Below, piece after piece: positions 373 to 40,214 of a stretch of 56,749 bases of DNA. The translations under genes and the position numbers were made by a program. Position 1 is the first letter of the stretch. Every line of letters starts with the position of its first letter. Source of the DNA: an uncultured Clostridium sp. (GTDB lineage Bacteria; Bacillota_I; Bacilli_A; RF39; UBA660); NCBI GenBank assembly GCA_964490375.1, contig CAZBAZ010000001.1, forward strand, positions 18,690 through 75,438, given 5' to 3'. The notes under the pieces were generated by a model. That model had not been told where the DNA came from and did no database searches. It saw only the letters and a list, made by a program, of their open reading frames with translations.

Positions 373-2355
373 TTATCTTTTATTACGCATTATTACAACT
401 CCTGAACCACCTGACCCAGCTTTTAAATAAAAGGCTTCGCCTCCATTACCAGTATTTGCTTCTCCTGAAGTGCCACTACATAATACACCTCCTATTTTTA
501 ATCCACAGCAGCCACCTTCGGCGTAGTTCTTTACACCATCGTTGCATCCTGTAGTTGTTCCTTCTCCAAATTCGCAAGTTGTACTTCCTTGTCCCTTGCC
601 AAATGTTGTAGGATAAGTTGGAGTTCCTTCATTGCAGTCAGACCAACCTCCTCCAGTGTTTCCACCTTCTCCACCATAAGAACAGTATCCACAGCATCCT
701 GGTGATATTGTACCAGTTTTACCGCCTTCAGCAGTCAAACCATTTATTATTGAATTATTTAATTTAACCGAACTACTTTTTCCATTATTACCACCACTGC
801 CACCAGCACCTATTTCAATTTTGTATGTGTTAGGCTGTAATGTAATACTTTTAACAGTTTTTGTATATCCGCCACCGCCGCCACCAGCAACACCTTTTTC
901 ATCTTCATAAGTAGTATTTCCGCCGCCGCCTCCGCCGACTAGGAAAACATCTACATTTAATGAAATCGTTGTTGTCAAGTTACCTGATGTTAAGAATCTA
1001 ACTTTCCAATTTTCATCTTCACATAATACTTCACAATTTCCGCTATACGTAAGATTATAATTTGAACCTTTTGACGTGTTACTACATTTATATGTCAAAT
1101 CACTGCATGCAATTTTATCAATTCTCCACTGAGCATATAATGTATGATTTTCTGTTCTTGTAACTTTTGTTGTACTTGTAACTTTTGTTCCCCCAGTTGT
1201 AGCTGTATACCAGCCTAAGAACGTGTATCCCTCTCTTGAAACTGTAGGCAATTCTCCATATGTGCTATCATATGTAACTTCTTTGCTAGCGTTTCCTTTT
1301 AATGTTCCACCACTAGCATTAAAACTTACTACATATGTATTTGCTGACCATACTGGTCTTACTTCACCCTCTTTTTTACTAGTATTTGTATTGTCGAATG
1401 CTATTTTGCTTAAAAAGTTTCCATTCTTATCTATAACTTCTTTTCCATTTGAATCATTATATCCTATAAGAGTATATCCAGTCTTACTTGAAACATCATC
1501 AAGGCCATCAATTTCCTCTCCATCTAAATCCTTATAATAGCCTACATCATATTTTAGGTAAAAAGTGCTAGGACTAGCCTTTGTTATATCTCCATCATCG
1601 ATTATTTTTAGTTTAAATACAGTTCCTGCTAATTGACTATCTTCTGAATATGTACTAGTAGAATACATTTTTATATCATATGTTCTATCTTCTGCATCAT
1701 ATCCATTATATGTTCTTACTATCACTGTTGCTAATTTGTTTTCATATCCATCTTTATTACTTTTATATGTATTATATTTTGTATCTAAACTTAAAAAACT
1801 ATATCCACTTATTGTACTAGATCCTAAACTGCCTGAGTCTATTTGAGTTTTGGTTTCTAGTTCAAATGTCTTTATATACTTAAGTTTCTTTTCTTTAGTT
1901 GTATCATAATAAACTAAACTTGTTTTTTTTGTTTCTATTATTCCAATTGCTTTTTTCCCATTACAATTACAATTTTCATTTGACTTATCAGAATTGTTTT
2001 TACAATAGTTTTGACATGTTTTTATCTTACCTTCATCTGTTTGACTACTAAAGTCTTCTGCAATTTCTATTATTTGTAGCTGCCTTTTATTTCCATTTCC
2101 TAGCATCATATCACAATTTAAATGATTTGCTGAACATGATACATTTTTTATTCCATCATTCTGTAATATATCATTATTTATTATTCTTGATGCTGCATTA
2201 CTATATACTAGTGCATTTGCATTCTCATTTACTGTACTATAATTTTCTCTTAGTTTTACTAGTGCCATAAGCATTGATACCATTACAACGCTTACTAATA
2301 CTATACTTACTATTAATTCGATTAGTGTAAATCCTTTTCTATTCATTTTCTTCAC
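373..2355 (-). CDS. Type IV pilin-like protein (prepilin N-methylation motif) with an InlB B-repeat and a C-terminal glycine-rich domain
   Basis: N-terminal RKG|FTLIELIV class III signal; YVVSFNASGG...GYTFLGWYT...TLYAQW Flg_new repeat; VGGGGGG...AGGGGGGY Gly-rich domain. Confidence 0.8.
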   Translation of the reverse strand: MKKMNRKGFTLIELIVSIVLVSVVMVSMLMALVKLRENYSTVNENANALVYSNAASRIINNDILQNDGIKNVSCSANHLNCDMMLGNGNKRQLQIIEIAEDFSSQTDEGKIKTCQNYCKNNSDKSNENCNCNGKKAIGIIETKKTSLVYYDTTKEKKLKYIKTFELETKTQIDSGSLGSSTISGYSFLSLDTKYNTYKSNKDGYENKLATVIVRTYNGYDAEDRTYDIKMYSTSTYSEDSQLAGTVFKLKIIDDGDITKASPSTFYLKYDVGYYKDLDGEEIDGLDDVSSKTGYTLIGYNDSNGKEVIDKNGNFLSKIAFDNTNTSKKEGEVRPVWSANTYVVSFNASGGTLKGNASKEVTYDSTYGELPTVSREGYTFLGWYTATTGGTKVTSTTKVTRTENHTLYAQWRIDKIACSDLTYKCSNTSKGSNYNLTYSGNCEVLCEDENWKVRFLTSGNLTTTISLNVDVFLVGGGGGGNTTYEDEKGVAGGGGGGYTKTVKSITLQPNTYKIEIGAGGSGGNNGKSSSVKLNNSIINGLTAEGGKTGTISPGCCGYCSYGGEGGNTGGGWSDCNEGTPTYPTTFGKGQGSTTCEFGEGTTTGCNDGVKNYAEGGCCGLKIGGVLCSGTSGEANTGNGGEAFYLKAGSGGSGVVIMRNKR

Positions 2356-2481: not shown

Positions 2482-2519
2482 AAAATAAAATCCTCTACAA
2501 AATAGAGAATTTTATTTTT
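2482..2519 (-). terminator. Probable intrinsic terminator of the gpmI-like gene
   Basis: Inverted repeat aaaataaaat-cctcta-caaaa-tagag-aattttatttt overlapping the stop codon. Confidence 0.55.
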
Positions 2520-4020
2520 CATTTTTTATAATCAAACTATTTCCTGTCATTTCTTTTGGTTTACTAATTTCATATAAGTCAATTATTGTTGGAATAACAT
2601 CTTTTAGTGAACCTGTACTTTGTAGTTTTATATTTTCATTACATATTACAAAAGGTACTTTTGAATCTGTGTGACATGTGAGTATGTTTCCTGATTCATC
2701 TTTCATATATTCTATATTTCCGTGATCAGCAACAATTGCTAATTCATAAAAATTATCATTTGCTTTATCTAATATTTGCTTTGTACATACATCACAGGCT
2801 TCTAATGCTCTAACTGAGGCTGGGATATTTCCTGTATGAGCAATAGTATCTGGATTTGAAAAATTTGCAAGAATAAAATCAAAATCTTCATCTATTGCAT
2901 CAAGCACAGCTGTTGTTACTTCTGTTATATTCATTTCTGGTTTCATATCATATCTTGGAACTTTAGGAGATGGTACTAGTATTTTATATAAGTTTTTATC
3001 TGAAAATTCTTCTGCTCCATCAAAGAAATATGTTACGTGAGAATATTTTGACGCTTCTGCAATTCTTGCTTGTTTAAATTCTAAATCTGCTAAATACTTA
3101 CCAAATGTATTTGATAATGTTTCATTTGTAAATGCTCCTGTTATTTTATCATTTGTGCTATATAGTGACATAAACTTTACATTTTTATATTTTTTTGTGT
3201 TAAACATATTAAATGATTCATCTACAAATGCTGATATTAATTCATCACTTCTTTCAGGTCTAAAGTCTACAAATAGTACTCCATCATTATCTTTAATATT
3301 GCTCCCCTTTGTTATTACACTTGGATTTATATATTCATCACTTATATTATTTTTATAATGTAATTCTAAACATCTCATATAGTCTGAGAAATTATTTCCT
3401 ATATTATATGCCATGACATCGTATGCTTTTTTTACTCTATCATAATTTCCATCTGTATCTAAGGCATAATATCTTCCACTTAATGTTCCGATTGTACCTA
3501 AGCCTAATTTTTCAGCTTTTTGCATAAATGTACTAATATATTCAATACCTTTGGTTTTTAAATTATCTCTTCCGTCCGTTATGAAATGGAATACTACACT
3601 TTTAACATTTCTTATTTTTGCTAATGCTAGTGTAGCATAGAAGTGGTCAATACATGAATGAACTCCACCATTTGAAACCACTCCAACTAAATGAAGTGTC
3701 GAAGCATTTTCATTTACATGATCCATTAAATCTAATAAATTATCATTTTCAAAAAAACTTTTGTCTTTAATACTATTATTTATTATTGTGTATGGTTGCG
3801 TTACTGTTCTTCCTGACCCTATAGTCATGTGTCCTACTTCACAATTACCCGGTTGGCTCTTTGGTAATCCAACTACTTCTCCACTTGCTTCTAGTTGACT
3901 AACAGAGTATTCTTTAAAAATATGTGCTAAATTAGGTAAACTTGCCATTTTAATAGCATTTCCATTATTATTTTCTCTTATTCCAAAGCCATCTAAAATT
4001 AATAAAATAATTTTTTTCAT
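2512..4020 (-). CDS. gpmI: 2,3-bisphosphoglycerate-independent phosphoglycerate mutase homolog with non-canonical active site (Ser->Cys)
   Basis: ILDGFG, GNCEVGH, GGVHS, TDGRD, SGRYY, FRPER, NPDTIAHTG and ADHGN motifs over about 500 aa. Confidence 0.85.
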   Translation of the reverse strand: MKKIILLILDGFGIRENNNGNAIKMASLPNLAHIFKEYSVSQLEASGEVVGLPKSQPGNCEVGHMTIGSGRTVTQPYTIINNSIKDKSFFENDNLLDLMDHVNENASTLHLVGVVSNGGVHSCIDHFYATLALAKIRNVKSVVFHFITDGRDNLKTKGIEYISTFMQKAEKLGLGTIGTLSGRYYALDTDGNYDRVKKAYDVMAYNIGNNFSDYMRCLELHYKNNISDEYINPSVITKGSNIKDNDGVLFVDFRPERSDELISAFVDESFNMFNTKKYKNVKFMSLYSTNDKITGAFTNETLSNTFGKYLADLEFKQARIAEASKYSHVTYFFDGAEEFSDKNLYKILVPSPKVPRYDMKPEMNITEVTTAVLDAIDEDFDFILANFSNPDTIAHTGNIPASVRALEACDVCTKQILDKANDNFYELAIVADHGNIEYMKDESGNILTCHTDSKVPFVICNENIKLQSTGSLKDVIPTIIDLYEISKPKEMTGNSLIIKNEK

Positions 4021-4084
4021 ATTTTTCTCCTGTTAATATTCTAACATAATATAATAAATTATAAAAGAAAAAAACTTAATATGA

Positions 4085-4846
4085 TTAGTTATGATTAATC
4101 ATATCAAGTCTTAATTTATCTGCTAAAGTAACTATAAATTCTGAATTTGTTGGCTTTGCTCTATCAATATCTACACTATGACCAAATATTTCATCCATTA
4201 AATCTATATCTCCTCTAAGCCATGAGACTTCAATAGCGTGTCTTATTGCTCTTTCTACTCTTTGAGTTGATGTATTAAATTTAACTGATAAGTCTGGATA
4301 CAATTCTTTTGTTATTCCACCTATAAATCCAGGATTTCCATATACCATTAGAATAGCTGATCTTATATACTGGTATCCTTTTATGTGGGATGGAATACCT
4401 AAAGCATGCAATAGATTAGTTACTTGAATTTGAATATCTTTACTTTGAATTTCAGAAATTTGATTTTTATTTCTTTCACTATTATAAATATCTAATACTT
4501 TATTTTTTATACTTTCTAATTCAAATGGTTTTAATACATAATACTTAACTCCATATTCACTTACTTTTCTTATTATTTCTTCATCATTAAATGAAGTCAT
4601 CATAATAACTTTACCTTTACTATTATGTTCTTTCATATATTTTAATACGTCAATACCATCTTTTACTGGCATTATTAAATCTAATAACATAATATCAAAA
4701 TCTAAATTTTCATCTAACATTTTTATTGCTTTCATACCATCTGATGCATCAGCAACCACTTCTATTTCATTTCCTCCATTAAAGTACTTCTTTACTAAAT
4801 TTACTGTCCCTGCATTATCATCTACTACGAATACTTTAACTTTCAT
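4085..4846 (-). CDS. spo0A: Sporulation master regulator Spo0A
   Basis: Receiver domain (VVDD; LLDLIMPVKDG) plus Spo0A C-terminal domain (IPSHIKGYQY, RVERAIRHAIEV, KPTNSEFI). Confidence 0.95.
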   Translation of the reverse strand: MKVKVFVVDDNAGTVNLVKKYFNGGNEIEVVADASDGMKAIKMLDENLDFDIMLLDLIMPVKDGIDVLKYMKEHNSKGKVIMMTSFNDEEIIRKVSEYGVKYYVLKPFELESIKNKVLDIYNSERNKNQISEIQSKDIQIQVTNLLHALGIPSHIKGYQYIRSAILMVYGNPGFIGGITKELYPDLSVKFNTSTQRVERAIRHAIEVSWLRGDIDLMDEIFGHSVDIDRAKPTNSEFIVTLADKLRLDMINHN

Positions 4847-4978: not shown

Positions 4979-5683
4979 TTAATTTAACTCATTTATAATA
5001 GATTTTAGTTCATCAATATTGATACTTGATTTTCCTAAAAGAATACCATCACTAGCATCAAATACATTTTTTACATTTTCTTTAGTTATAGAGCCACCAT
5101 AATATACTTCTACATCTAAATTATATTTTGTTTTAATATATTCTTTTATTTGAATAATTGTTTTTGTTATTTTATCAATACATTGTATTTCTCCACTACC
5201 TATAGCCCAGTTTGGTTCATATACAATAGATAAATATTTTAAATTTAAAGGTTCAATAGATTTTAAATAATAATTTAATTCTTTTTTGATATAGTTAAAT
5301 GGTTTTTTTGTTTTTTTATATTCTCCTACACAAAGAATAGTGTTAAATTTATTACTTAATGATTTGAATAGTTTTTCTTTTGTCATTTCTTTTGTTTCTT
5401 CTATGAATTTTCTTCTTTCATAGTGACCAATTAATGTATATGAAACATTTATGTCTTTTAAAGATTCTAGATTTAATTCTCCAGTGAATGAACCCATTTT
5501 TGAACTAAAAAAATTTTGTGTTCCTACACTATATTTAGCATCTTTAAATAGTGTTAAATATAATATAGGAGGAAATAATATAAAATCATAGTTTATATTA
5601 TTGATGTTATCAAAATCATTTTTGAAGTTTATCATATCATTATATAATAAATAACTTTTTTGATTTAGAATTACCTTTTTCAT
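4979..5683 (-). CDS. tpiA: Triosephosphate isomerase (divergent)
   Basis: NQK, GHYERR, YEPNWAIG and YGGS motifs retain the catalytic Lys/His/Glu; directly downstream of pgk with a 4-bp overlap. Confidence 0.9.
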   Translation of the reverse strand: MKKVILNQKSYLLYNDMINFKNDFDNINNINYDFILFPPILYLTLFKDAKYSVGTQNFFSSKMGSFTGELNLESLKDINVSYTLIGHYERRKFIEETKEMTKEKLFKSLSNKFNTILCVGEYKKTKKPFNYIKKELNYYLKSIEPLNLKYLSIVYEPNWAIGSGEIQCIDKITKTIIQIKEYIKTKYNLDVEVYYGGSITKENVKNVFDASDGILLGKSSINIDELKSIINELN

Positions 5684-6828
5684 TTATTTATACCATTTAA
5701 TCTTTCTAGTGTTTTGAATTTTTTTCCTTCTAAGTATTCTAGTGTTGAACCTCCACCTGTTGAAACATAGTATAATTCTATATTAAAGTATTTTGAGGCT
5801 CCTGTTATATCTCCTCCTGCTAGGATTGTATTAAACTTTTGTTTTTTTAAAAATTGCATTACTTTTTTAGTACCATTTTCATATTCTTTATCTTCATATT
5901 TACCAAGTGGACCATTCCATAATACTAATTTGCTTGTTTTTAATTCTTCTGTAAAGAGTTTTATAGTTTTAGGACCAATATCATATCCAATATCATCATC
6001 ACTCATATCTTCTATATTTTTAATTCCATTTTGAGTTACAACATCTATTGGAAGAATGATAGTATTTGGATATTTTTTTAATAATTTTTTTGCATAATCA
6101 ATATTTTCTTCACTTAATATACTTTCTCCAATATTATATCCTTTAGCTTTTAAGAATGTAAAACACATTCCACCACCTAGTAATACTTTATCAGATTTTT
6201 TTATTAAATTATTTATTACTCCTATTTTATCCTCTACTTTTGCTCCACCTAAAATTAGAGTTTTATTTTGTTTTAATGCTTTATCTAAGATAGTCGTTTC
6301 ATTTTGTACTAAAAATCCAGCATATGATGGTAAATATTTAGATATACCATAAGTTGAAGCATGGCATCTATGAGCACTTCCAAATGCATCCAATACAAAT
6401 ATATCTCCTAGACTAGCCCAATATTTAGATAGTTTTTCATCACATGAACTTTCTAATGTTTTTGGATAGTCTTCCCATCTAGTGTTTTCTATAACTGCAA
6501 TTTCTCCTTCGCATAAGTTATCCAAAGTTGTTTCTAAGAGTTCTCCTCTTGTTTTAGGAATAAAGTATACTGGAGTATTTACTAATGTAGATAAATGTTT
6601 AGCTACTATTCTAAGTGAATTCTTTTTCTTGTCTTCTTCTGTCTTAACTCTTCCTAAATGAGATAATAAAATTACTTTAGCTTTCTTTTCTACTAGATAA
6701 TTAATAGTTGTAAGACTACTTACTATTCTATTATCATCTAATATTTTCCCATCCTTAAATGGAATATTAAAATCAACTCTTACTATTACTCTTTTACCTT
6801 TTACACTAGCACTTTTAATACTTTTCAT
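5680..6828 (-). CDS. pgk: Phosphoglycerate kinase
   Basis: RVDFN, SHLGR, AHRCHAS, GGAKVEDKI, DIGPKT, WNGP and STGGG motifs. Confidence 0.97.
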   Translation of the reverse strand: MKSIKSASVKGKRVIVRVDFNIPFKDGKILDDNRIVSSLTTINYLVEKKAKVILLSHLGRVKTEEDKKKNSLRIVAKHLSTLVNTPVYFIPKTRGELLETTLDNLCEGEIAVIENTRWEDYPKTLESSCDEKLSKYWASLGDIFVLDAFGSAHRCHASTYGISKYLPSYAGFLVQNETTILDKALKQNKTLILGGAKVEDKIGVINNLIKKSDKVLLGGGMCFTFLKAKGYNIGESILSEENIDYAKKLLKKYPNTIILPIDVVTQNGIKNIEDMSDDDIGYDIGPKTIKLFTEELKTSKLVLWNGPLGKYEDKEYENGTKKVMQFLKKQKFNTILAGGDITGASKYFNIELYYVSTGGGSTLEYLEGKKFKTLERLNGINK

Positions 6829-6837
6829 TTTTTATAC

Positions 6838-7392
6838 CTACCTTTCTGTTTCTATGTATAATTTTTTAGCATCTTCTTCTAGTCTTTCTAAAGTTGTGTT
6901 TACAATTTCCACATCATAATCTGTAAAGTCATCTAAATCCACTTCTGTTTTATGTTTCTTTTGTTCCTCGGTTAATCCATTATCAAAGTCAGGTCTTAAT
7001 ATATGAACTACTTTTGCATTTGGATATGAAGCTTTTAAATCGTGTATTTCTTTTTTTAGTCTAACATCACTTATTATTATAGCATCATAGAAGCATGAGA
7101 ATACATCTATATCATCTATCATTCTATTAATGAATAAATCTTCTTTTTGCAAATATTCTCTTATAACACTTGTTCCTAATTGTTGGAGTAATTCTCTAGG
7201 CTTAGTTTCTTCACTTAAATCCCATCCGGTCATTTCTCTTGCATAATATTTTATGTATTTTGACAATTGAGTTACTATAATTTTCTTTCCATTATCTTCA
7301 TATGCTTTCTTTAAGAATGCTGAGAATGTATCTTTCCCATGTTTTGCTTTTCCACACATTAAGTAAATTGTTGGATTTTTCTTTTCTATCAT
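6838..7392 (-). CDS. P-loop kinase resembling dNMP-kinase / animal-type phosphomevalonate kinase folds
   Basis: CGKAKHGKDT P-loop; KPRELLQQLGT; IISDVR. Substrate unknown. Confidence 0.6.
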   Translation of the reverse strand: MIEKKNPTIYLMCGKAKHGKDTFSAFLKKAYEDNGKKIIVTQLSKYIKYYAREMTGWDLSEETKPRELLQQLGTSVIREYLQKEDLFINRMIDDIDVFSCFYDAIIISDVRLKKEIHDLKASYPNAKVVHILRPDFDNGLTEEQKKHKTEVDLDDFTDYDVEIVNTTLERLEEDAKKLYIETER

Positions 7393-8429
7393 TATTCCTC
7401 CTCTTCATCTTTTGATAAAATCATCCATGCATTTGGTAGTCTTCTTTCACCTGAATATCCATAGCCTTGTGGATTATTAATTAAGGCTCCTTTTCCATCT
7501 TTTACAGCATATAATGCACTTGAACCACCACCATCTAAGTTAGCTGCGTTATATGCTTTATATTTAACAAACAATTCTGCTAATTCTGGCATTGATATTC
7601 CTACAGAAGATGATGTTCTACCATCAATAACTACAAATAAAACTATTCCATCTTGTCTTTGACCAATCGCACTTCTATTAGCTATTCCCCAACCACCATT
7701 TCCTTTAAATGTTGATTTTTTTCCATTTATAACTAAGAATGGGCCAAATTCTACTGCTCTATCCATACCATCTTTGATAGCTTCTTCTGCCGACTTTTTA
7801 GTAAGCATTAATACATTATCTTTTGTAAATCCAATTAATCCTCCACCTTTATTAATACTTCTTCCAACATCATAAACTTTTCCATCTTTAATAACTGTTC
7901 CAGTAACTCTATTACTTCCAGGTATTGAATTAACTCCTGATGCATTCATTGCTATTAAAGCATTGGCATCACTTGCCATTGTTGAAAGGTAATCTCCACC
8001 TTTACCATAATTTTTTGAGAATACTAGTTCTACATCAGCTGGGTCATATACAACAATCATATATCCTTTCCAACCTTTACCGCTTATATCTAATATTTTA
8101 TATCTATCATCTTCATTTTCTTTCTTCAAGATTTGTTCTTCATAAATAGATTCATAAGTATCTGATTCAAAATCTGGATTGAAAGTTATTTTTGATGTGT
8201 CTGTTGGATCATCTGATTCAATTACTTTATTGTTATCTAACACCTCTTGTACTTCTTCTTCACTATAAAATACATATGCAAAGTAATGATGTGACTTTGT
8301 TGTCATGGCTGTTGTTACCCAAAAATCCCTAAAGAATGAAAATGGGCCATATACTACAAAGAAACTTATTAAGGCTAGAACATCTATAACAATTAAAAAC
8401 ACTATAAATTTACTTTTTTTCTTTTTCAT
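7392..8429 (-). CDS. Phosphodiester glycosidase (NAGPA/DUF2233, EpsL-like), membrane-anchored
   Basis: N-terminal TM helix; AMNASG, FGPFLVING, NRSAIGQRQDG, VIDGR and NLDGGGSS motifs. Confidence 0.85.
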   Translation of the reverse strand: MKKKKSKFIVFLIVIDVLALISFFVVYGPFSFFRDFWVTTAMTTKSHHYFAYVFYSEEEVQEVLDNNKVIESDDPTDTSKITFNPDFESDTYESIYEEQILKKENEDDRYKILDISGKGWKGYMIVVYDPADVELVFSKNYGKGGDYLSTMASDANALIAMNASGVNSIPGSNRVTGTVIKDGKVYDVGRSINKGGGLIGFTKDNVLMLTKKSAEEAIKDGMDRAVEFGPFLVINGKKSTFKGNGGWGIANRSAIGQRQDGIVLFVVIDGRTSSSVGISMPELAELFVKYKAYNAANLDGGGSSALYAVKDGKGALINNPQGYGYSGERRLPNAWMILSKDEEEE

Positions 8430-8430
8430 T

Positions 8431-9780
8431 TTATTCTCCTAGTACAAATGGATTATTAAGTGTTCCAGTTCCATTTTTTATTTTTAAATCATTTTTTAAG
8501 TTAAATGCTATTCTAATATTATATTTTGATGTAATATTATCTCCAAATACTGTACCATTTTCTTTAATAACATTTATTATTAAATCAGATTCTATTCCTC
8601 TTGTTAAAGTAAATACATTTTTAACATCACCTATGAAATTATCTGATATGTTTAGCATACCTATTTTCATAGTCACTTTTTCGTCTTCTAATGCAGTATA
8701 GTCTAAGTTATCTAGCGCTAACTTCCCAATATTCCATGAAGATTCTACTATATTTTCATTATTATTTAACATATTTAAAACGTCTTTATTTAGATATAAA
8801 CCTAAGCCAGTTTTAACATTAATTTTACTTGAGGTACTATCAAATGTTGTTTCAATTAATTTATTATCCTTTGTTAATGCTTCTGTACTTGCAACTCTTA
8901 CACTATCTGTTTCTTTTTCTATAACTCTATATTTGATTCCATCCAATTCAATATAATTTCCTACATAAACATCTTTTAATTCATTAATATCATGTTTTTC
9001 TACTACATATGGATTATCTTTCGAACCATTTCCACTTAGTAATTCTGTTTTTGATGATAAAGTTATAACAGGTCTAACTCCATGAATTTTAGTACTTACT
9101 TGATCTTTTGCTATTTCTCCAGTTTCAGTTATAAAATATGTTTCATTAGAAGAATCAGTTGTTGATAAATAATATGTTTCTCCATTATTTAAGAAACTTG
9201 ATTTACCACCTGCATTATAATAATCATAAAGTGATAATATTGTAACTTTATTTGACATATTTAAATTTTCACATGTTATTTTCGTCATATCATCAATTTT
9301 ATCTTCACATCTAAATGAATTAGTTAATAAATCAAACCCATATAAATCTTTAGTAAATTTTGATTTTTCTGTATCATTTAACCACTTATTAACATATGAA
9401 TCATCATAGCCTTTTTCTAATCCTGAATACATCATAGTAATAACATTTTCACTAATGGCTCTTATATTTTTTTCATTATCAATACCTAAAATCCTATATA
9501 AATTTCCTGAATATATAAGATAGTTATTATCAACATCGCCTTTATACGTATAAGAAGTTTTATCATCATTTTTTACTAAACCTTTTGTTAAATCTACATA
9601 GCTTTCATCTTTTAACACTTTATCAACAAGTAAATTTGTATTATTTGAATCACTTTCACCATTTTCTAACTTATAGTATTTAATAAGTCTAAATGTGTAA
9701 AATCCTATTATAAATAATAATAGGAAAATATTTATTGTAACCAAGACAGGAGTGATTTTTAGTACTTTTCTTCTAGACAT
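8431..9780 (-). CDS. Membrane-anchored protein with two DUF6273-like domains
   Basis: N-terminal TM; duplicated Y..RILG/YRVI...S..N..LN...GVRP/NIR...G.G+..NP+ pattern. Confidence 0.55.
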   Translation of the reverse strand: MSRRKVLKITPVLVTINIFLLLFIIGFYTFRLIKYYKLENGESDSNNTNLLVDKVLKDESYVDLTKGLVKNDDKTSYTYKGDVDNNYLIYSGNLYRILGIDNEKNIRAISENVITMMYSGLEKGYDDSYVNKWLNDTEKSKFTKDLYGFDLLTNSFRCEDKIDDMTKITCENLNMSNKVTILSLYDYYNAGGKSSFLNNGETYYLSTTDSSNETYFITETGEIAKDQVSTKIHGVRPVITLSSKTELLSGNGSKDNPYVVEKHDINELKDVYVGNYIELDGIKYRVIEKETDSVRVASTEALTKDNKLIETTFDSTSSKINVKTGLGLYLNKDVLNMLNNNENIVESSWNIGKLALDNLDYTALEDEKVTMKIGMLNISDNFIGDVKNVFTLTRGIESDLIINVIKENGTVFGDNITSKYNIRIAFNLKNDLKIKNGTGTLNNPFVLGE

Positions 9781-9789
9781 AATTTACCT

Positions 9790-10482
9790 CTAATCTCCAA
9801 AGTCATTTTGATATGCAATTAAGCTTGCATTTATAACTCCATCTACATTATTAAATTGATCAACTATTGTAGTTTCTATATTAGCAATTTTTTTATTATT
9901 TTCTTTAATATCTACTTCTAATGATAGTTCTACTTCATCTTTAAATATTGATTTACTTCTTATTTTAAATTTCTTTAATGTCTTTAATTTTTTAACTACA
10001 TCATTATGTGCATCTGCTTTATATTTTAATACTAATAAATATCTATTAGCTGTTCTAAATCCCATTAAGTATGCCCCAAAGTATAATACTCCAACCATTA
10101 AAGTTGCTACTAAAGCTGGAATATATAATCCTGCTCCACACATAATACCTGCGGCTATTCCCCAAAACATAAATCCTGTATCAACTGGTTCTTTTATAGC
10201 TGTTCTAAATCTTACGATTGATAAAGCACCAACCATACCTAAAGATAAACTGATATTAGAATTAATTGTTCTAATAATCATTGCTGTTACCATAGATAAC
10301 ATAAGTAAACATAAAGAAAATGCTTTACTATATACTACTCCAGTATAAGTCTTTCTATATATGTATATAATAAACATTCCAATTACAAATGCTACTATAA
10401 GAGATATAATCATATCTCCAACTGAAATTGTTCCTGTAAAATTTTCTAATACTGATTTTTTTATTGTATCAACTGCACTCAT
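9790..10482 (-). CDS. DUF4956 membrane protein
   Basis: SLGMVGALSIVRFRTAIKEP signature. Start moved to ATG 10482, which follows GGAGG. Confidence 0.9.
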   Translation of the reverse strand: MSAVDTIKKSVLENFTGTISVGDMIISLIVAFVIGMFIIYIYRKTYTGVVYSKAFSLCLLMLSMVTAMIIRTINSNISLSLGMVGALSIVRFRTAIKEPVDTGFMFWGIAAGIMCGAGLYIPALVATLMVGVLYFGAYLMGFRTANRYLLVLKYKADAHNDVVKKLKTLKKFKIRSKSIFKDEVELSLEVDIKENNKKIANIETTIVDQFNNVDGVINASLIAYQNDFGD

Positions 10483-10492
10483 TTTATTCCTC

Positions 10493-11179
10493 CTACTTGA
10501 TACTTCTACATATTGCAAATTTGCTAACTGCTTCTCTACAACTAGGAATATCGTTTAATATATTTGCAATATGTAATGGTAATATTTCATTAAATTTAAC
10601 TTCTAAAACTTGTTTTCCATCTTCTGTTACTGAATATGTTGGCATTTCATTATCAAATAAATCATAATTGTAAAGACCACTTTCTATATTAGAATCAAAT
10701 GTAATTCTTACTTCACTTACTGGATATGTAAATGCTATTCTGTGATAAGCAACAATTACTGATGGAATCAATCCTTTTGTCTTTGTATCATTTATAAATT
10801 CTAGTAATAAACCTTCAGGATTCTTTATTTCATTAATTTTACCATTTAATATTTTACTATATATGTCTTTTGAAATCAACATTTGTTCTTTTGCTGTATA
10901 AGTATTGTGCTTCATTTTCTTTTCAAGTCTTATAAAACTCTCATCATCATTATAAATTCTAATTCTATATTTTTTTCTATATAGTACTCCATCCATTTTT
11001 TCATAATATGAAGTAGAATCTAAATTATCAAAATATAAACTTTTTATTAAATAAGAACCATCTTCATAATAAGCATTTTTATCTTTTCCTAATATTAATG
11101 ATAGTTTTTGTTTTAATACTTCTGCAGCACTATTACTTATTTTAAACTTTAATTCATGTCTATATTTATATTTTTTCAT
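10493..11179 (-). CDS. VTC-domain (polyphosphate polymerase-like, TTM fold) protein
   Basis: RHELKF, SLYFD, KYRIRIY, LEKKMK, RITFD, LEVKF and SKF motifs. Confidence 0.9.
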   Translation of the reverse strand: MKKYKYRHELKFKISNSAAEVLKQKLSLILGKDKNAYYEDGSYLIKSLYFDNLDSTSYYEKMDGVLYRKKYRIRIYNDDESFIRLEKKMKHNTYTAKEQMLISKDIYSKILNGKINEIKNPEGLLLEFINDTKTKGLIPSVIVAYHRIAFTYPVSEVRITFDSNIESGLYNYDLFDNEMPTYSVTEDGKQVLEVKFNEILPLHIANILNDIPSCREAVSKFAICRSIK

Positions 11180-14091
11180 TTAACATCACCAAAATATTTC
11201 TTAACTTCTGAATCAGATAAATTAAAATACGATTTAGCATACTTAACCAAAATAGCATTTCTTTTTTTAGCAAATGTTTTCATAGCTGTGATTGAACTTT
11301 CCCAATGACTATATGAGTTATTCCATCTTTCTGCATTTCTTTTAAATTCGTCTTTTCCAATTTCTTCTATTATATTGTCTATTTTTTCACTAACATTTTC
11401 ATAAGACCAAGTATTTTTTAGATTATATGATAGCCTTTCTAAGAATGCTTTTTTAAATTCATCACTTTTCATTAAATTTCTAAGTAATGTCGTTGGAAAG
11501 TTCCATGCTCCCATACCACTTGAATTAGTATATTCAGCAAATGAATTTTGATTAGTTCTAAAGAATCCTGAATCTAAATCATAGAATATATATTTCCATT
11601 TACCATTATCTACTACACTACTACTGAAATATCTAGTATTTAATATATCATAGTTAGCAGTATATATTTCACCAATCCAAAAGTCACATAAACTTGTAAT
11701 ATCTATTTGATCTTTAATTTTGTTGTAATTTGATTTATCACTCATAGAATTATTAGATACAAAATTTATAAGTGAATTATAATTTTTATTTGTTCCAATT
11801 TTTACTTCTCCGTCTATTCTTAATATTGAAGTGTTTTCTTCTGTTGCTTGTACATTATAATGATTTGAAATAAATGATTCATCTACTTTTTCACGGATAA
11901 AATATATTCCCCAATATTTTCCATTAATATATAATGCAATTGGTTTATATGCTTGAACATCTACATCTGTGTATTCATCCATTAATGATGTAGCCACTAC
12001 GTCTTTTATAACGGTTCTTTGACTATCATATTCAAATTCGTCTTGTGACCCTGTTCTTAATACAAGAGACTCATACATTGAACTATCTACTGTATCAAAT
12101 ACTTTATATTTTAAATGAGCAGAACCAAATTCTTTTTTAAATTTTATTTCGTAGCTTTTCTTTTTATAACTTCTAGTAGAACCACCAAATAATTTTAATC
12201 CTGCACCTATTTCGAAACTGTTTCCATCTGTGTCATAAAATTCTACATAAGCCTGTTCAATTACTGAACTATTTAATGATGTATGACTGTTAACATTATT
12301 TAATTTTTTTTCATCTATACTTAATGACATAACGGCTATTTTATGATTTTCGTTCATTATGTATGAGTAAGTTTTGGTTTCACTTTCTAGTTTTCCATCT
12401 TCTTTATTCATTATTCTTAAAACAGTAGTCTTCTTAATAGTAAGAGGACTACTGTATACTTTAGATGAGACAGTTGGTGTTGAGCCATCAAGTGTATAAT
12501 AAATTTTTCCACTTCCTGTAAGTGCTACTTCTATTTCATCTTTATTATTAAATATTCCTCCAGAAACAGAAGATGTTGGAATACTAGACATTGCTATATC
12601 TCCATTTCCATTTTTACTTCCTGGTGTTGGAGTTTTATAATAATAAACACCATAATCTTTTCCTTTACCAATAGAACTTCCATTTGGAACATCTGATACT
12701 AATATAGAGTCAACAATATTTTTATTTTTAGTTAAATATATTCCTTCAACATCACCTATTTTAAAGTTTGCATGCTTATATTTATCATTTGACAAACTTT
12801 CTGTTCCGGAAGCCATAACTAAATAATATTCGCCTTTGCCAAGTTCAACATTTGGTAACTCATACATACATATGTTATTTGTAGTATTTGTTAAACAATA
12901 ATCACTTAGTTTAATAGTATCATTAGAATTATTATGTAACTCTATCCAGTCATAATAATTTCCACCATTTTGAGGCAAATATTTATAATTATTATTCATT
13001 ACTTCACTAATAATTAAATCATCTGGTGTACTCATATATTTCTTTTGAAAGTCTTTTATTCCATCTATTCCATTATCATAACCAGGTGAAATACTACTTC
13101 CTTCTGACATCGTATTGTTATTTCTAATATAAGCTTTACCATTTGCTAAATTAGTATATTCAACTTTATCTATTACTTTACCTTTATTATTAGTTAAAAC
13201 CGCTACTCCATTTTTACTTTTTAATTTAAATCCAGTACTTAACTCTCCACTTTTTCTGCTTATTCCTGATGTATATACTACAACAACTTCTCCCGGAGAT
13301 AATTTAGTGCTTGGAAATTGCCATTTAAAACTAACGTCTTCACTATTAGATAAACTATAATTTGCAATATTAATAGATTTATCACTAACATTTTTGACTT
13401 CTATATATCCACTATATTCTCCATTTTTGTTTTTAAAATTACCTTTATTATCTGGTAAAACTTCATTAATAACAATAGTTTCATCATCGTTTGAAATTAA
13501 GGATGCAATAAACTCTTCATGACCATCAATAGTATTTGCAAATCCAGGTGTTGGCTTTTCTTGTACAACCCAGGTGCCTTTTGGATCTCTTGCCATCACA
13601 TAATTTGATTCCAATGAAACAGTTTCTACTGCATCAATTACTTTTCCATTTGGTTTAAATAGAGTAACAATTTCTCCACCAGAACTTTTAAGTTTGAAGT
13701 CAGCACTTAATTCACCTTTTTTACCAGTTAATTTAACAACTATATATTTTTTAGATTCTATTGTTATATCTCCAAAGGCCCATTTTACTTTATCATTTTC
13801 ATCACTTAATCCATAATTCTTCAAGTTAATATCAGAGTCACTTCCATTATATATTTCAATATAATCATATAAGTTACCTTCTTCATCAGATATAACTCCA
13901 TTATTTGATGTCATTATTTCATTTATAACAAGTGAATTTATATCAACATCATCATTAGTTAAATCACTTTTATCTAGTTTTGTTCCTTTTTCACCAAATA
14001 AAATACTCACTAATAATAAAACCACTATTAATGCTATACTTACTATAAAAAATAATATATTTTTTTTAAATTTTTTGATATTAAATTTCAT
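11176..14091 (-). CDS. CotH-family kinase with lamin-tail domains and a chitobiase C-terminal-like domain
   Basis: N-terminal TM; three LTD repeats (INEIM/INEVL/ISEVM...YIE/WIEL.N); IYYTLDGSTP; CotH motifs KSYEIKF, YWGIYFIRE, WKYIFYDLD. Confidence 0.88.
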   Translation of the reverse strand: MKFNIKKFKKNILFFIVSIALIVVLLLVSILFGEKGTKLDKSDLTNDDVDINSLVINEIMTSNNGVISDEEGNLYDYIEIYNGSDSDINLKNYGLSDENDKVKWAFGDITIESKKYIVVKLTGKKGELSADFKLKSSGGEIVTLFKPNGKVIDAVETVSLESNYVMARDPKGTWVVQEKPTPGFANTIDGHEEFIASLISNDDETIVINEVLPDNKGNFKNKNGEYSGYIEVKNVSDKSINIANYSLSNSEDVSFKWQFPSTKLSPGEVVVVYTSGISRKSGELSTGFKLKSKNGVAVLTNNKGKVIDKVEYTNLANGKAYIRNNNTMSEGSSISPGYDNGIDGIKDFQKKYMSTPDDLIISEVMNNNYKYLPQNGGNYYDWIELHNNSNDTIKLSDYCLTNTTNNICMYELPNVELGKGEYYLVMASGTESLSNDKYKHANFKIGDVEGIYLTKNKNIVDSILVSDVPNGSSIGKGKDYGVYYYKTPTPGSKNGNGDIAMSSIPTSSVSGGIFNNKDEIEVALTGSGKIYYTLDGSTPTVSSKVYSSPLTIKKTTVLRIMNKEDGKLESETKTYSYIMNENHKIAVMSLSIDEKKLNNVNSHTSLNSSVIEQAYVEFYDTDGNSFEIGAGLKLFGGSTRSYKKKSYEIKFKKEFGSAHLKYKVFDTVDSSMYESLVLRTGSQDEFEYDSQRTVIKDVVATSLMDEYTDVDVQAYKPIALYINGKYWGIYFIREKVDESFISNHYNVQATEENTSILRIDGEVKIGTNKNYNSLINFVSNNSMSDKSNYNKIKDQIDITSLCDFWIGEIYTANYDILNTRYFSSSVVDNGKWKYIFYDLDSGFFRTNQNSFAEYTNSSGMGAWNFPTTLLRNLMKSDEFKKAFLERLSYNLKNTWSYENVSEKIDNIIEEIGKDEFKRNAERWNNSYSHWESSITAMKTFAKKRNAILVKYAKSYFNLSDSEVKKYFGDVK

Positions 14092-14165: not shown

Positions 14166-15158
14166 TTACATAAATAATTTCATAGTTCTTATCATTTGAG
14201 CAGTGTATCCAACTTCATTATCATACCATGCTACAACTTTTAATAATTGTTTTCCATCACTCTCTACAATGTTTGTTAAAAGTCCATCAATAGTGCATCC
14301 ATATTCTTCTCCAATTATATCTGAACTAACAATTGGGTCTTCAGTATATTTAATTGTTTTACTTTGATGTGATTTGAACATATTATTAACTGATTTAATA
14401 GTAGCATTCTTTTCTAATTCCAAAGTTACATCTACAACAGAACCATCTACCACTGGAACTCTTAGGGCGATTCCATCCATTTTTCCTTTTAAATGAGGAA
14501 TGACTTTTCCTATTTGAGAAGCTGCTCCTGTTGATGTTGGAATTATATTAAATGAAGCTGCTCTACCACGTCTTGAATAAATTCCTTTTTTATGTGCAAT
14601 ATCCAAAGTTACTTGGTCATTTGTAATTGCATGAACTGTTGTCATAAATCCTTTTTTAATGGTAAACTTATCATCAATTAATTTAACAAGTGGTGCTAAA
14701 CAATTAGTTGTACAACTAGCTGCACTAATGATTTTATCATTTTTATTTAATATTTCATGGTTTACTCCATAAACAATTGTTTTAACATCATCTTTAGCTG
14801 GAGCACTTATAATAACATGTTTAGCTCCTGCATTTAAGTGTGCTTGACATTTTTCAGCTGATGTGAAAACTCCAGTACATTCTAATACTACATCTACCCC
14901 TAGTTTCTTCCATGGTAAATTATTTGGATCCATTTCTGCAAAAACCTTAATTTTTTTGCCTTTTACAATTAAATCATTTCCCTCAAATCCAATTTTTCCT
15001 TTATATGTTCTATGAGCTGAATCATATTTGAATAAATATGCTAATTGGCTTGCATCAGTTAAGTCATTTATAGCTACTACTTCAATATCCTTTTCATTTT
15101 GTAATAATCTTAATGCTGTTCTTCCTATTCTTCCAAATCCATTAATTGCTACTTTCAT
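14166..15158 (-). CDS. gap: Type I glyceraldehyde-3-phosphate dehydrogenase
   Basis: INGFGRIGR, SCTTNCLAP, RVPVVDGS, WYDNE. Confidence 0.98.
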   Translation of the reverse strand: MKVAINGFGRIGRTALRLLQNEKDIEVVAINDLTDASQLAYLFKYDSAHRTYKGKIGFEGNDLIVKGKKIKVFAEMDPNNLPWKKLGVDVVLECTGVFTSAEKCQAHLNAGAKHVIISAPAKDDVKTIVYGVNHEILNKNDKIISAASCTTNCLAPLVKLIDDKFTIKKGFMTTVHAITNDQVTLDIAHKKGIYSRRGRAASFNIIPTSTGAASQIGKVIPHLKGKMDGIALRVPVVDGSVVDVTLELEKNATIKSVNNMFKSHQSKTIKYTEDPIVSSDIIGEEYGCTIDGLLTNIVESDGKQLLKVVAWYDNEVGYTAQMIRTMKLFM

Positions 15159-38149: not shown

Positions 38150-38758
38150 ATGATTATGAAGGAAGTAGTAGTAAATAGTATAATTAGTAATATCAAAAAA
38201 TATTATAATTATAGTGATGTAAAATTAGCTGAAATTAAATATGGTATTGAATCGTTATATTTATCAATATTTAAAACTCTTGTTATTTTTATAATATCAT
38301 TTATATTTCATTTTACAAAAGAACTGATACTTTTATTTATATTCTATGGACTCCTTAGATTAACTGCTTTTGGGGTTCATGCTAAAAAATCATGGCAATG
38401 TTGGGTTTCTTCTATATTAACTTTTACTATATTGCCATTACTTATTAAATATGTTGTTGTTAATAACTTGTTAATTGATATTCTTTCTGTGATTTTTTTA
38501 GTTATACTTGCTATTTATGCCCCAGCAGATACTGAGAAAAGACCAATTTATAGTAAGAAAAAAAGAAGTGTTTATAAGTTGTTAACAATAATAATTTCTA
38601 CTATTTATGTTTTATTAATTATATTCTCTAATAATATTTATATGAAAAACATCTTGTTTTATTCTTTATTAAATCAAGTAATTCTTATATTACCTATAAC
38701 ATATAAATTATTTGGAGTTCAATATAGTAACTATAAAAGGAAAGGAGGAAAAATATGA
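38150..38758 (+). CDS. agrB: Accessory gene regulator B (AIP-processing protease)
   Basis: IKYGIE; LRLTAFGVHA...CW (His/Cys dyad); YAPADTEKRP. Start uncertain (38135 GTG, 38150 or 38156 ATG). Confidence 0.92.
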   Translation: MIMKEVVVNSIISNIKKYYNYSDVKLAEIKYGIESLYLSIFKTLVIFIISFIFHFTKELILLFIFYGLLRLTAFGVHAKKSWQCWVSSILTFTILPLLIKYVVVNNLLIDILSVIFLVILAIYAPADTEKRPIYSKKKRSVYKLLTIIISTIYVLLIIFSNNIYMKNILFYSLLNQVILILPITYKLFGVQYSNYKRKGGKI

Positions 38759-38871
38759 AATTCTTTGCAGGATTGGCAGCTACTATCGGTGCTTTCATCG
38801 CAGCTACTGCTTCAATGGGATGCATTTTATTACTTTTAGATGAACCAGAAATGCCTTCTTCATTATTATAA
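38755..38871 (+). CDS. agrD: AgrD autoinducing peptide precursor, 38 aa (MKFFAGLAATIGAFIAATASMGCILLLLDEPEMPSSLL)
   Basis: Strong AAGGAGG RBS; ATGA overlap with the agrB stop; amphipathic leader, Cys, then DEPEMP tail. Below the ORF-track length cutoff. Confidence 0.92.
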   Translation: MKFFAGLAATIGAFIAATASMGCILLLLDEPEMPSSLL

Positions 38872-38897
38872 TTTAAATTATAATTTTCAAGTATAAT

Positions 38898-38926
38898 AAA
38901 ACTAATTGAACAAATCAATTAGTTTT
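38898..38926. terminator. Bidirectional terminator between agrBD and agrAC
   Basis: aaaactaattga-acaaa-tcaattagtttt; the agrC stop lies in one arm. Confidence 0.75.
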
Positions 38927-40214
38927 GTTTTACTATAATTTTTGAATTAAATATTTGATTCTCTATTTTCTGTTCTAATATTAAATTATTACTTGTTTTT
39001 AAGAGATTTTTTATAATATATAAACCTAAACCTCTTCCTTTTCCTTTTGTAGAATAATTTTTAGTACCAATTTTTCTAATATCAACTTGTTTACTAAATG
39101 AATTATCAATCATTATGATTATATTCTCATTTTCTTTATAAATGTCTATATTTAACATTTTTTCTTTACTATTATCTGCAGCCTCAATAGCATTATCTAA
39201 TGTTATTCCAACTGTTTTACAAAGTAATGCATATTCTTTATGATTTAGTTTTTCTAAATTTAATGATATTTGTTTTGAAATGTTTATATTTACTTTTATT
39301 TTTTTCTTTTGAACTTCTTCTAATTTATAGTAAACCATACCTTTTAATCCAGTTGGCAATTTACTAATATTTTTAATTCCCATACCCTTTTTATCATAAA
39401 TTCTTATTAAATCGTCAAGAGTATCATTAAATTCTTTTGAGTTTTTATTTTTTATACTTTTTAATATTAACAAATTATTTAACATTTCATGTCTATTTAT
39501 TCTATCTTCATCTATTTTATTTTCATAAGTTGAAATAAAGTTTAACAATGTTTCTGTTTTTTTAACTTCTTTTAAAGATTTTATGTTGTTGTAAATTCCA
39601 TATCCAATTATAAGTGTAAAACATATAATAATTAAAATATTGGTAAAATAAATTTTTTTGTTTCCATTTATAACCATTTTGTAATCTAATAATGCAAATA
39701 CAATTAATATTATAATTGATACAATTAATGTTGTATTATTTTTCCCTATAAATGAGTTGATTTTAGCTGATAGTCTTTGTATCTTTTTTCTTCCAGTAAT
39801 GTAAAACAAAATTAAAACATTTATTAACGAATATATAATTTTTAATAACATATTTTCATCAAAAAAGCTTAAGTTTGTTATATGCAAAATCACAAGTATA
39901 AATGAAGTAGCCAATTCAAATAAAAGCATTATTATAAAACACATAATTGTGTTTATAGTAACTTTTGGAAGTTTATCATTAAAGACAATTAATGCACTAA
40001 TCATAAGAACTAACATATTTAAAACAATTCTTGATACACTTCCGTTGTTATAAAAAACTATTGATATTATTATTCCTGAAAGTATTGATACTATGATTAT
40101 CTTTTTGCTTATAACTATCTTATTGTTTCCACTTAATCTATTATAAGAAAGTAATTGTATATAGGAACTAAATATAGCTAATAGACCAATTATGGCATAA
40201 TTAAAAGCATTCAT
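38919..40214 (-). CDS. agrC: AgrC-type sensor histidine kinase
   Basis: Multi-TM N-terminus; RHEMLNNL H-box; LDNAIEAA; YSTKGKGRGLGL. Confidence 0.9.
   Translation of the reverse strand: MNAFNYAIIGLLAIFSSYIQLLSYNRLSGNNKIVISKKIIIVSILSGIIISIVFYNNGSVSRIVLNMLVLMISALIVFNDKLPKVTINTIMCFIIMLLFELATSFILVILHITNLSFFDENMLLKIIYSLINVLILFYITGRKKIQRLSAKINSFIGKNNTTLIVSIIILIVFALLDYKMVINGNKKIYFTNILIIICFTLIIGYGIYNNIKSLKEVKKTETLLNFISTYENKIDEDRINRHEMLNNLLILKSIKNKNSKEFNDTLDDLIRIYDKKGMGIKNISKLPTGLKGMVYYKLEEVQKKKIKVNINISKQISLNLEKLNHKEYALLCKTVGITLDNAIEAADNSKEKMLNIDIYKENENIIIMIDNSFSKQVDIRKIGTKNYSTKGKGRGLGLYIIKNLLKTSNNLILEQKIENQIFNSKIIVKQN

Follow-up and report, generated by a model that had tools for sequence, protein, structure and literature searches.

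Active-site variation under purifying selection in a clade of GpmI orthologues, with cysteine at the phosphoserine position, from uncultured gut and rumen Bacilli

In a 56,749-nucleotide stretch of DNA from an uncultured Clostridium sp. (contig CAZBAZ010000001.1; this whole stretch is hereafter called the window), the gpmI gene at positions 2512-4020 on the minus strand encodes a 502-aa, full-length two-domain homologue of cofactor-independent phosphoglycerate mutase (iPGM) that has cysteine in place of the phosphoserine nucleophile. We found that this replacement belongs to a variation of the active site that runs through the whole clade of the protein, and the main new result is this clade-wide variation, in a core glycolytic enzyme, under strong purifying selection. 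The reading that we prefer, to which we give a probability of roughly 0.45, is that selection for the Ser-phosphoenzyme mutase chemistry has ceased in the clade and that the cysteine is a tolerated, metal-ligating replacement. iPGM is regarded as an enzyme that evolves slowly and whose phosphoserine mechanism is invariant, and this mechanism has made it a drug target. A literature search yielded no description of a natural Cys-type iPGM, of an iPGM pseudoenzyme or of active-site drift in gpmI.

Active-Site Variation in the GpmI Clade

The clade set consisted of 178 sequences that were 64-97% identical to the window GpmI, and trees were built from them. Residue numbers in the clade comparisons are those of the G. 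stearothermophilus iPGM. The nucleophile position, 62, was occupied by Ser in 139 members, Cys in 35, Gly in 3 and Ala in 1, corresponding to at least 12 changes on the tree; at least 10 of these were switches between Ser and Cys, and the nucleophile was lost twice. Changes were also numerous at Arg191 (39; still Arg in only 38 of 176 clade sequences), Arg153 (31), Arg264 (22), His462 (11), His123 (10) and Asp154 (7). At the near-fixed sites, in contrast, none was seen at Arg185 and Asp403, one each at His66 and His407, two each at Asp12 and His445, and three at Arg261. Of the metal ligands, Asp12, Asp403, His407, Asp444 and His445 are nearly invariant in the clade and His462 is not. The residues of the chemistry drift, and the metal site and the ligand-gripping residues Arg185, Arg261 and Lys336 are conserved.

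The variability percentiles among all alignment columns were 56 for Ser62, 51 for His123, 45 for Asp154 and 94 for Arg191. His462, like the nucleophile, His123 and Asp154, evolves near the median site rate, and Arg191, Arg153 and Arg264 are among the more variable positions. The two domains of the protein changed at the same rate (13.7 vs 14.6 changes per column). As a family control, 150 iPGM representatives were used, these being the representatives of 50%-identity clusters from an exhaustive phmmer search. Ser62 and His123 were each present in 148 of 148 of them, Arg191 in 146 of 149, Arg153 in 143 of 149 and His462 in 147 of 149. Because these 150 diverse representatives are nearly invariant, the loosening of the active site is specific to the clade, and the same family-wide invariance is the reason for the weight that we give to Arg191, Arg153 and Arg264. 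iPGM sequences in general evolve very slowly (Foster et al. 2010, PMC2964296). Among the 50%-cluster representatives, the best match (P0124) is 934 aa long; its residues 1-501 are an iPGM, to which about 430 more residues are fused.

The replacements at position 62 were almost only to Cys (at least 10 of the 12 changes), although a single step from the serine codon TCT leads just as well to Pro, Thr, Ala, Phe or Tyr. Since the replacements are almost only Cys, a Ser-like, metal-ligating side chain appears still to be wanted there. Several relatives have gone further. GNAEVGH is found in one of them (L022) and GNGATGH in three (P0085, P0090 and P0101), a CAG:524 lineage (L020/L021) combines H123Y, R153V, D154T, R264N, D444S and H462N, and P0424 combines D12S, S62C, H66A and H462N; all of these are intact full-length open reading frames (ORFs). 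As judged from their residues, the active sites of these relatives cannot support the classical mechanism. The sister species L028 (L028:6001-7509; 96% identical to the window protein, with the same Cys60 and Thr189) reads FTPER for FRPER, Arg261 having been changed to Thr by a two-base change (AGA>ACG), and this arginine is almost invariant even within the relaxed clade.

Purifying selection on the whole protein was equally strong whatever the state of the active site. At comparable synonymous divergence (dS), the ratio of nonsynonymous to synonymous substitution rates (omega) was 0.03-0.05 for Cys forms, 0.07 for Cys forms with further erosion, 0.06-0.13 for eroded Ser or Ala forms and 0.055-0.066 for canonical forms. 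The first of these ranges comes from the three Cys-bearing species (that of the window, L007 and L028), for which the pairwise dS was 0.37-0.46. At the level of the clade, the catalytic sites evolve no slower than the average site in a protein under purifying selection, which is the pattern by which pseudoenzymes are recognised.

Further variants were seen beside these. A large Ser-type sublineage (L009-L016 and L018; P0021 etc.) reads GNSEACH, with Gly65 replaced by Cys just before His66, and a rumen lineage (L024/L025) reads GNCEACH, with both cysteines. In a rumen-associated sub-radiation near L024 (P0407-P0426), in which Cys62 predominates and all members are full-length, H123N/Y, D154E and R264S/A/T were found, and in some members D12S, H66A, D444S and H462N. 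In L031 (CP091739.1, 852854-866367), a 1.5-Mb 'complete' chromosome of a metagenome-assembled genome (MAG), the gpmI region and its neighbours are full of frame breaks, with 76 stops in the straight translation. These breaks are probably long-read indel errors, and the GNAEVGH reading of L031 agrees with that of the clean L022.

The Cysteine and Threonine Substitutions of the Window GpmI

The window protein has the architecture of the iPGM family, in which a transferase domain (iPGM_N; PF06415 at 2e-62) is inserted into a phosphatase domain (Metalloenzyme; PF01676 at 2e-64). It passed the TIGR01307 equivalog model (544 bits; cut-off 330.65) and failed the stricter NF003897 (410.8 bits; cut-off 862), and it could be aligned end to end with the G. 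stearothermophilus iPGM (1EJJ) at E 8e-125. The AlphaFold2 model of the protein had a predicted local distance difference test (pLDDT) value of 87 and a predicted template modelling (pTM) score of 0.85. When compared with the closed, substrate-bound structures 1O99, 1EJJ and 1O98, the model gave a template modelling (TM) score of 0.95 and a root-mean-square deviation of 2.1 Å.

In the alignment with 1EJJ, codon 60 (TGT, 3841-3843, minus strand), in the motif GNCEVGH, places Cys on the nucleophile Ser62, and codon 189 (ACA, 3454-3456, minus strand), in the motif YYALDTD, places Thr on Arg191. All six metal ligands are kept (Asp12, Asp403, His407, Asp444, His445 and His462, which are D10, D391, H395, D432, H433 and H450 in the window protein), as are the substrate and catalytic residues H64, H121, R151, D152, R183, R254, R257 and K325. 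Thus, eight of the nine family-invariant substrate and catalytic residues remain, the sole exception being Arg191. The original prediction, made from the sequence of the window, had stated that GNSEVGH reads GNCEVGH through a TGT codon, that AMDRD reads ALDTD with loss of the arginine, and that the metal ligands and the other substrate residues remain. It was right in every detail apart from the strand, as the gene lies on the minus strand.

The two substitutions are not confined to a single assembly. The identical protein was found on 10 contigs from at least six independent samples or assemblies, and all 14 full-length variants read from the 90%-identity cluster, together on about 310 contigs, have Cys60, Thr189 and FRPER. 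The GTDB species representatives L007 and L028 (96-97% identity) share TGT at codon 60. Since codon 62 of the Ser-bearing relatives is TCT, TCC or TCA, Cys as TGT is one step away by a single C>G transversion. At codon 189, the sister species have ACT and the window ACA; since this difference is only synonymous, Thr itself is maintained at the position. The close relatives are therefore far from being all of the Ser type, as Cys is fixed in three species and arose many times in the clade. We conclude that the Cys60/Thr189 variant is genuine, fixed and recurrent, and is not a sequencing error.

The signals around the gene are those of an intact unit. An AGGAG ribosome-binding site is located 6 nt from the ATG (4027-4031, minus strand), and a 15-bp perfect hairpin lies over the stop codon and is followed by a U-rich tail (2484-2516, minus strand), so that it resembles a terminator. 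In RNA folding, the hairpin had -12.9 kcal/mol and a z-score of -5.6, and none of 200 shuffled sequences folded as well; owing to its AT-rich stem, it escaped the consensus terminator scan. The promoter scan gave 49 matches where 40 were expected, which is uninformative in DNA with a GC content of 26%.

Three other ways of accounting for the cysteine were considered and rejected. A non-standard decoding of TGT was rejected because the catalytic Cys of the glyceraldehyde-3-phosphate dehydrogenase (GAPDH) encoded in the window is also encoded by TGT. A formylglycine-type nucleophile was rejected, as the context is N-C-E-V-G-H and the maturation motif (C/S)-x-(P/A)-x-R is absent. The gene being a paralogue instead of the orthologue was rejected by the synteny of gpmI.

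Interpretation of the Active-Site Changes

In the reading that we prefer, selection would have stopped policing the classical Ser-phosphoenzyme chemistry in the GpmI clade of these uncultured low-GC gut and rumen Bacilli. Cys60 would then be a tolerated, nearly isosteric substitute for Ser62 that could still ligate metal ion 2, and it may have become fixed in the window lineage after Arg191 had already been lost. The protein would have been kept for a role that needs binding of metal and phospho-ligand and closure of the domains, and not a fast turnover between 3-phosphoglycerate (3PGA) and 2-phosphoglycerate (2PGA). This role could be one of binding or regulation, or of slow or altered phosphoryl transfer. 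For the window protein itself, residual thiol-based mutase activity is plausible since the site is nearly intact, and such activity would be expected to be slow. Most of the phosphoglycerate mutase (PGM) activity would be expected to be supplied by a different enzyme, of the cofactor-dependent (dPGM) or ApgM type, whose gene would lie elsewhere in the genome. A second PGM is plausible in the organism, since the set of PGMs in bacteria is reshaped by loss, gain and transfer (Foster et al. 2010, PMC2964296).

Relaxed chemistry is favoured because the catalytic residues evolve at average rates, because selection on the protein is independent of the state of the active site, because clearly dead yet conserved relatives exist, and because L028 lost Arg261 through a change of two bases. 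It is also favoured because Cys is enriched on eroded backgrounds, other core losses being present in 27 of 35 Cys sequences vs 28 of 138 Ser sequences, an enrichment that is non-significant after phylogenetic correction. An adaptive exchange of the nucleophile is less favoured because Cys60 and Thr189 are part of a clade-wide loosening that includes Ala and Gly at position 62 and losses of His123, Asp154, Arg153, Arg264, His462 and Asp12. The two residues are not an isolated swap. The interpretation given in the original prediction is partly supported, and its proposals of a phosphocysteine or redox-switchable mutase, of an enzyme with a new substrate and of a regulator are all still viable.

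Several observations weigh against relaxed chemistry. The window GpmI keeps 14 of 16 key residues, every metal ligand among them, and has lost only Ser62, replaced by a possible nucleophile, and Arg191; the clear losses are confined to relatives. The products of gap, pgk and tpiA in the window look catalytically intact and form a glycolytic cluster with gpmI, and in the same genome pairs the omega of gpmI does not exceed that of pgk (0.06-0.07) or tpiA (0.06-0.10). The dPGM signature RHG(E/Q)(S/T)xxN had no match in the window or in the fetched related loci (about 350 kb, a small part of any genome), and the only other iPGM-like gene in the window (43714-45171) is catalytically blank. When Cys was compared with other erosion in phylogenetically independent pairs, the direction was consistent and power was lacking (sign test p 0.25-0.5). 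Finally, no partner or readout is known for a non-catalytic role of GpmI.

The strongest alternative is that the Cys forms are genuine PGMs, in which the Cys60 thiolate at metal site 2 would attack the phosphate of 3PGA or 2PGA to give an S-phosphocysteine enzyme, and the phosphate would then be returned to the other hydroxyl of the glycerate in the closed cleft. Such an enzyme would be the working, and possibly the only, PGM of the organism, and in a strictly anaerobic cytoplasm thiol oxidation would be no liability. The retention of all metal ligands in a site that is complete but for Ser62 and Arg191 is consistent with this, as are the glycolytic cluster with intact gap, pgk and tpiA and the missing sign of any other PGM in the motif scan described above. 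Cys has been fixed over three species at an omega at or below that of pgk and tpiA and is present on about 310 contigs. Among the six amino acids one step from TCT, moreover, it is the only good alternative nucleophile of the same size, and it accounts for at least 10 of the 12 changes. The model in the closed iPGM fold would also suit this mechanism, for which a precedent by analogy may be seen in the S102C variant of alkaline phosphatase, which, as summarised in PMC8938923, catalyses transphosphorylation with retention of configuration. On the other side, Cys is absent from all 148 diverse iPGM representatives, so that it must normally be strongly counter-selected, and within the clade it is found alongside loss-of-function states (Ala/Gly62, D12S, H66A, H123N/Y, D154E/T/Y and H462N). 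Arg191, invariant elsewhere, is missing, the sister species L028 has also lost Arg261, and the nucleophile position evolves at the median site rate. We therefore hold the thiol-based mutase to be a tentative but serious possibility, and consider relaxed chemistry to be slightly more likely.

A broader picture may be drawn, in which a full-length iPGM lineage runs glycolysis on S-phosphocysteine as the only PGM of spore-forming gut Bacilli, a cluster of Cys60, Cys123 and Cys449 makes the step redox- or metal-switchable, and the whole radiation has rebuilt or abandoned the chemistry and kept the protein. Taken as a whole, we regard this picture as a real possibility but less likely than not.

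GpmI could also be a non-catalytic regulator that binds 3PGA or 2PGA and is functionally coupled to Spo0A; a partner would read the ligand-induced closure of the domains, and sporulation would follow the glycolytic state. In the window, spo0A (4085-4846, minus strand; Spo0A_C and Response_reg domains, TIGR02875 at 267 bits) is located directly upstream of gpmI on the same strand and ends 64 nt before it, and almost every clade locus examined has the two genes side by side on one strand. Such a role would fit the drift of the chemistry residues in a clade that conserves Arg185, Arg261, Lys336 and the metal site, and it would also fit a purifying selection that is independent of the active-site state. 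However, the outgroup L030 (41% identity), which has fully canonical catalytic residues, has the same pgk-tpiA-spo0A-gpmI order, so the adjacency is older than the relaxation, predates the Cys change and is an old marker of the clade. The original prediction was thus correct in placing gpmI directly downstream of spo0A, but the position is not peculiar to the Cys form. In addition, the Ala-bearing L022 has kept gpmI though its spo0A neighbourhood is lost, and there is no evidence of any partner. A regulator coupled to Spo0A is therefore improbable.

The last functional alternative, which refines the thiol-based mutase, is a mutase that is switched by redox state or metal, in which Cys60 and two further cysteines would either make a disulfide or build a softer metal site rich in thiolate. 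These are Cys123 (TGT, 3652-3654, minus strand; G. stearothermophilus position 125), which in the alignment is two residues past the catalytic His121, and Cys449 (TGT, 2674-2676, minus strand; position 461), next to the metal ligand His450. Activity would be gated by oxidation or metal supply, for example in sporulation or germination, replacing the Mn2+/pH gating of Bacillus. All three cysteines are fixed in the species group of the window. Position 125 is Ser in 159 of 176 clade members, and Cys125 arose four times, with three of these origins falling within Cys62 lineages, whose share of the tree length is 12% (rough p ~0.006, post hoc and uncorrected); the three independent lineages with both Cys125 and the Cys nucleophile are the window clade, P0086 and L024/L025. 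Cys at position 461 is more common in Cys62 sequences (7 of 18) than in Ser62 sequences (5 of 123), and the sporulation genes spo0A, spoIID and cotH in the window would suit a switch of this kind. Nevertheless, the correlation emerged post hoc from about 500 columns, position 461 belongs to the more variable sites, Cys125 is absent from five of the eight Cys62 lineages, and the hosts are gut anaerobes, in which the role of oxidative switching is unclear. The idea of a redox switch is alive but weak, and we rate its chances as slim.

That the cysteine is a sequencing or assembly error, a private mutation or part of a decaying pseudogene, for which its rarity at the nucleophile site of the wider family is the sole argument, is practically out of the question given the identical protein in at least six independent samples, the 14 cluster variants that all have Cys60 and Thr189, the three species sharing Cys at an omega of 0.03-0.05, and the intact ORF with a good ribosome-binding site and terminator-like hairpin.

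Genomic Context

On one strand, the order of the genes is gap, an insert of six genes, pgk, tpiA, spo0A, gpmI, a gene for a pilin-like surface protein, and the S10 ribosomal operon. The tpiA gene (4979-5683, minus strand) encodes a protein with the catalytic Lys, His and Glu motifs (NQK, GHYERR, YEPNWAIGSG and YGGS). The adjacent pgk (5680-6828, minus strand) was assigned by Pfam PGK and by PDB 4DG5 at E 5e-106, and gap (14166-15158, minus strand), encoding GAPDH, has the catalytic SCTTNC motif. The order pgk-tpiA-spo0A-gpmI was found in nearly all related loci examined, the host MAGs of which are labelled as uncultured Bacilli, 'Mollicutes', 'Erysipelotrichaceae' and 'Clostridium sp. CAG:524' and come from the human gut and the rumen. 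The window gene is therefore the syntenic glycolytic gpmI orthologue. No enolase gene was found in the window or in the fetched related loci.

The slot of tpiA between pgk and spo0A is empty in four loci (L008, L024, L025 and L027). In three others (L026, L029 and L030), a simple motif search showed a TpiA homologue without a recognisable EPxWAIG or YGGS pattern; the TpiA of the window is intact. The insert that parts gap from pgk (6838-14091, minus strand) consists of genes for cotH, VTC, DUF4956, an unknown 449-aa protein, a NAGPA-like protein and a P-loop kinase (DNMK). The six genes overlap or follow one another closely, and relatives have conserved most of the block. The gene downstream of gpmI (373-2355, minus strand) encodes a protein of 660 aa; its N-terminus has a methylation motif like that of type IV pilins, its C-terminal domain is rich in Gly and Cys, and it also contains a Listeria-Bacteroides repeat. 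In each relative, another surface protein occupies the slot between gpmI and the S10 operon, and these proteins change fast.

The window encodes another full-length iPGM-like protein (485 aa) at 43714-45171 on the minus strand. It shares 20% identity with GpmI in a colinear alignment (pairwise E 4e-10) and has none of the catalytic or metal residues, with LLINGFG for LLILDGFG and no GNSEVGH, NPD..H or ADHGN, and it had no Pfam match above threshold. At least 245 proteins, with 49-94% identity, make up its family, and they occur in the same kind of MAGs. In the window, the gene is flanked by a P-type cation ATPase gene and by the RDD, rpiB and spoIID genes. We considered whether it might be a hidden canonical PGM and rejected this in view of the 20% identity and the lack of catalytic residues; from its sequence, it appears to be an ancient and fully dead paralogue of iPGM.

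The DNA between the two iPGM-like genes contains, at 38150-40917 and 41683-42606, a quorum-sensing set of the agr type, in which AgrB and a small ORF accompany a LytTR response regulator and a GHKL kinase, as well as spoIID. The window thus has several sporulation genes (spo0A, spoIID and cotH) despite the small genome with a GC content of 26%, and the organism appears to be of a spore-former type.

Significance and Comparison with Known Systems

The gpmI orthologues discussed here belong to common bacteria of the human gut and the rumen, and annotation pipelines name them ordinary mutases. If the Cys forms are active, they would be, as far as we found, the first natural thiol-nucleophile members of this branch of the alkaline phosphatase superfamily, and the clade would supply Ser/Cys pairs ready for use in mechanistic studies. 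If the Cys forms are inactive, metabolic reconstructions that count this gene as a PGM would be wrong, and the protein would have another conserved role.

In sporulating Bacillus, iPGM is under a Mn2+- and pH-gated control that governs the spore depot of 3PGA. The window has spo0A, spoIID, cotH and an iPGM-family protein in common with that system. In contrast to it, the spo0A adjacency in the window is a feature of clade-wide synteny, and there is no sign of Mn2+/pH gating. On the Bacillus iPGM, PMC2964296 cites Chander et al. 1998.

Among other members of the alkaline phosphatase superfamily, the Cys- and Ser-type sulfatases resemble the present clade in that Cys and Ser are naturally interchanged at the homologous nucleophile position. 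Sulfatase maturation turns this Cys or Ser, placed in a (C/S)-x-(P/A)-x-R motif, into formylglycine by oxidation. The context N-C-E-V-G-H of the window protein does not fit this motif, so formylglycine maturation is not expected. In the arylsulfatase EfAS of Enterococcus faecium, the C61S variant keeps 20-35% of the activity. The E. coli alkaline phosphatase S102C, from the same superfamily and with the same kind of binuclear metal site, likewise has Cys in place of Ser, but it is engineered and not natural, and it is a hydrolase and not a mutase. As summarised in the review PMC8938923, earlier work found its Cys to be a ligand of a zinc ion in the active site, unlike the Ser that it replaces, and the review cautions that the mechanism of the variant may differ from that of the wild type.

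The closest structural and sequence match to the window GpmI was the S62A mutant of the G. stearothermophilus iPGM (1O99), the fold of which tolerates replacement of the nucleophile. The mutant is reportedly catalytically inactive. Its natural counterparts are the clade members with Ala (L022) and Gly (P0085) at this position, whereas the window protein, unlike the engineered mutant, has a Cys that could still be phosphorylated. With the wild-type G. stearothermophilus GpmI (1EJJ and 1O98; TIGR01307), the window protein shares 41-42% identity over the full length, the same two domains at a TM score of 0.95 in the model, the metal ligands, and His123, Arg153, Asp154, Arg185, Arg261, Arg264 and Lys336, as well as the glycolytic context of the gene. 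It differs in having Cys for Ser62, Thr for Arg191 and extra cysteines at positions 125 and 461, and in belonging to a clade that does not conserve the catalytic set. By its predicted fold and its orthologous group, the window protein is thus an iPGM that departs from the family in two of its defining features, the Ser nucleophile and Arg191.

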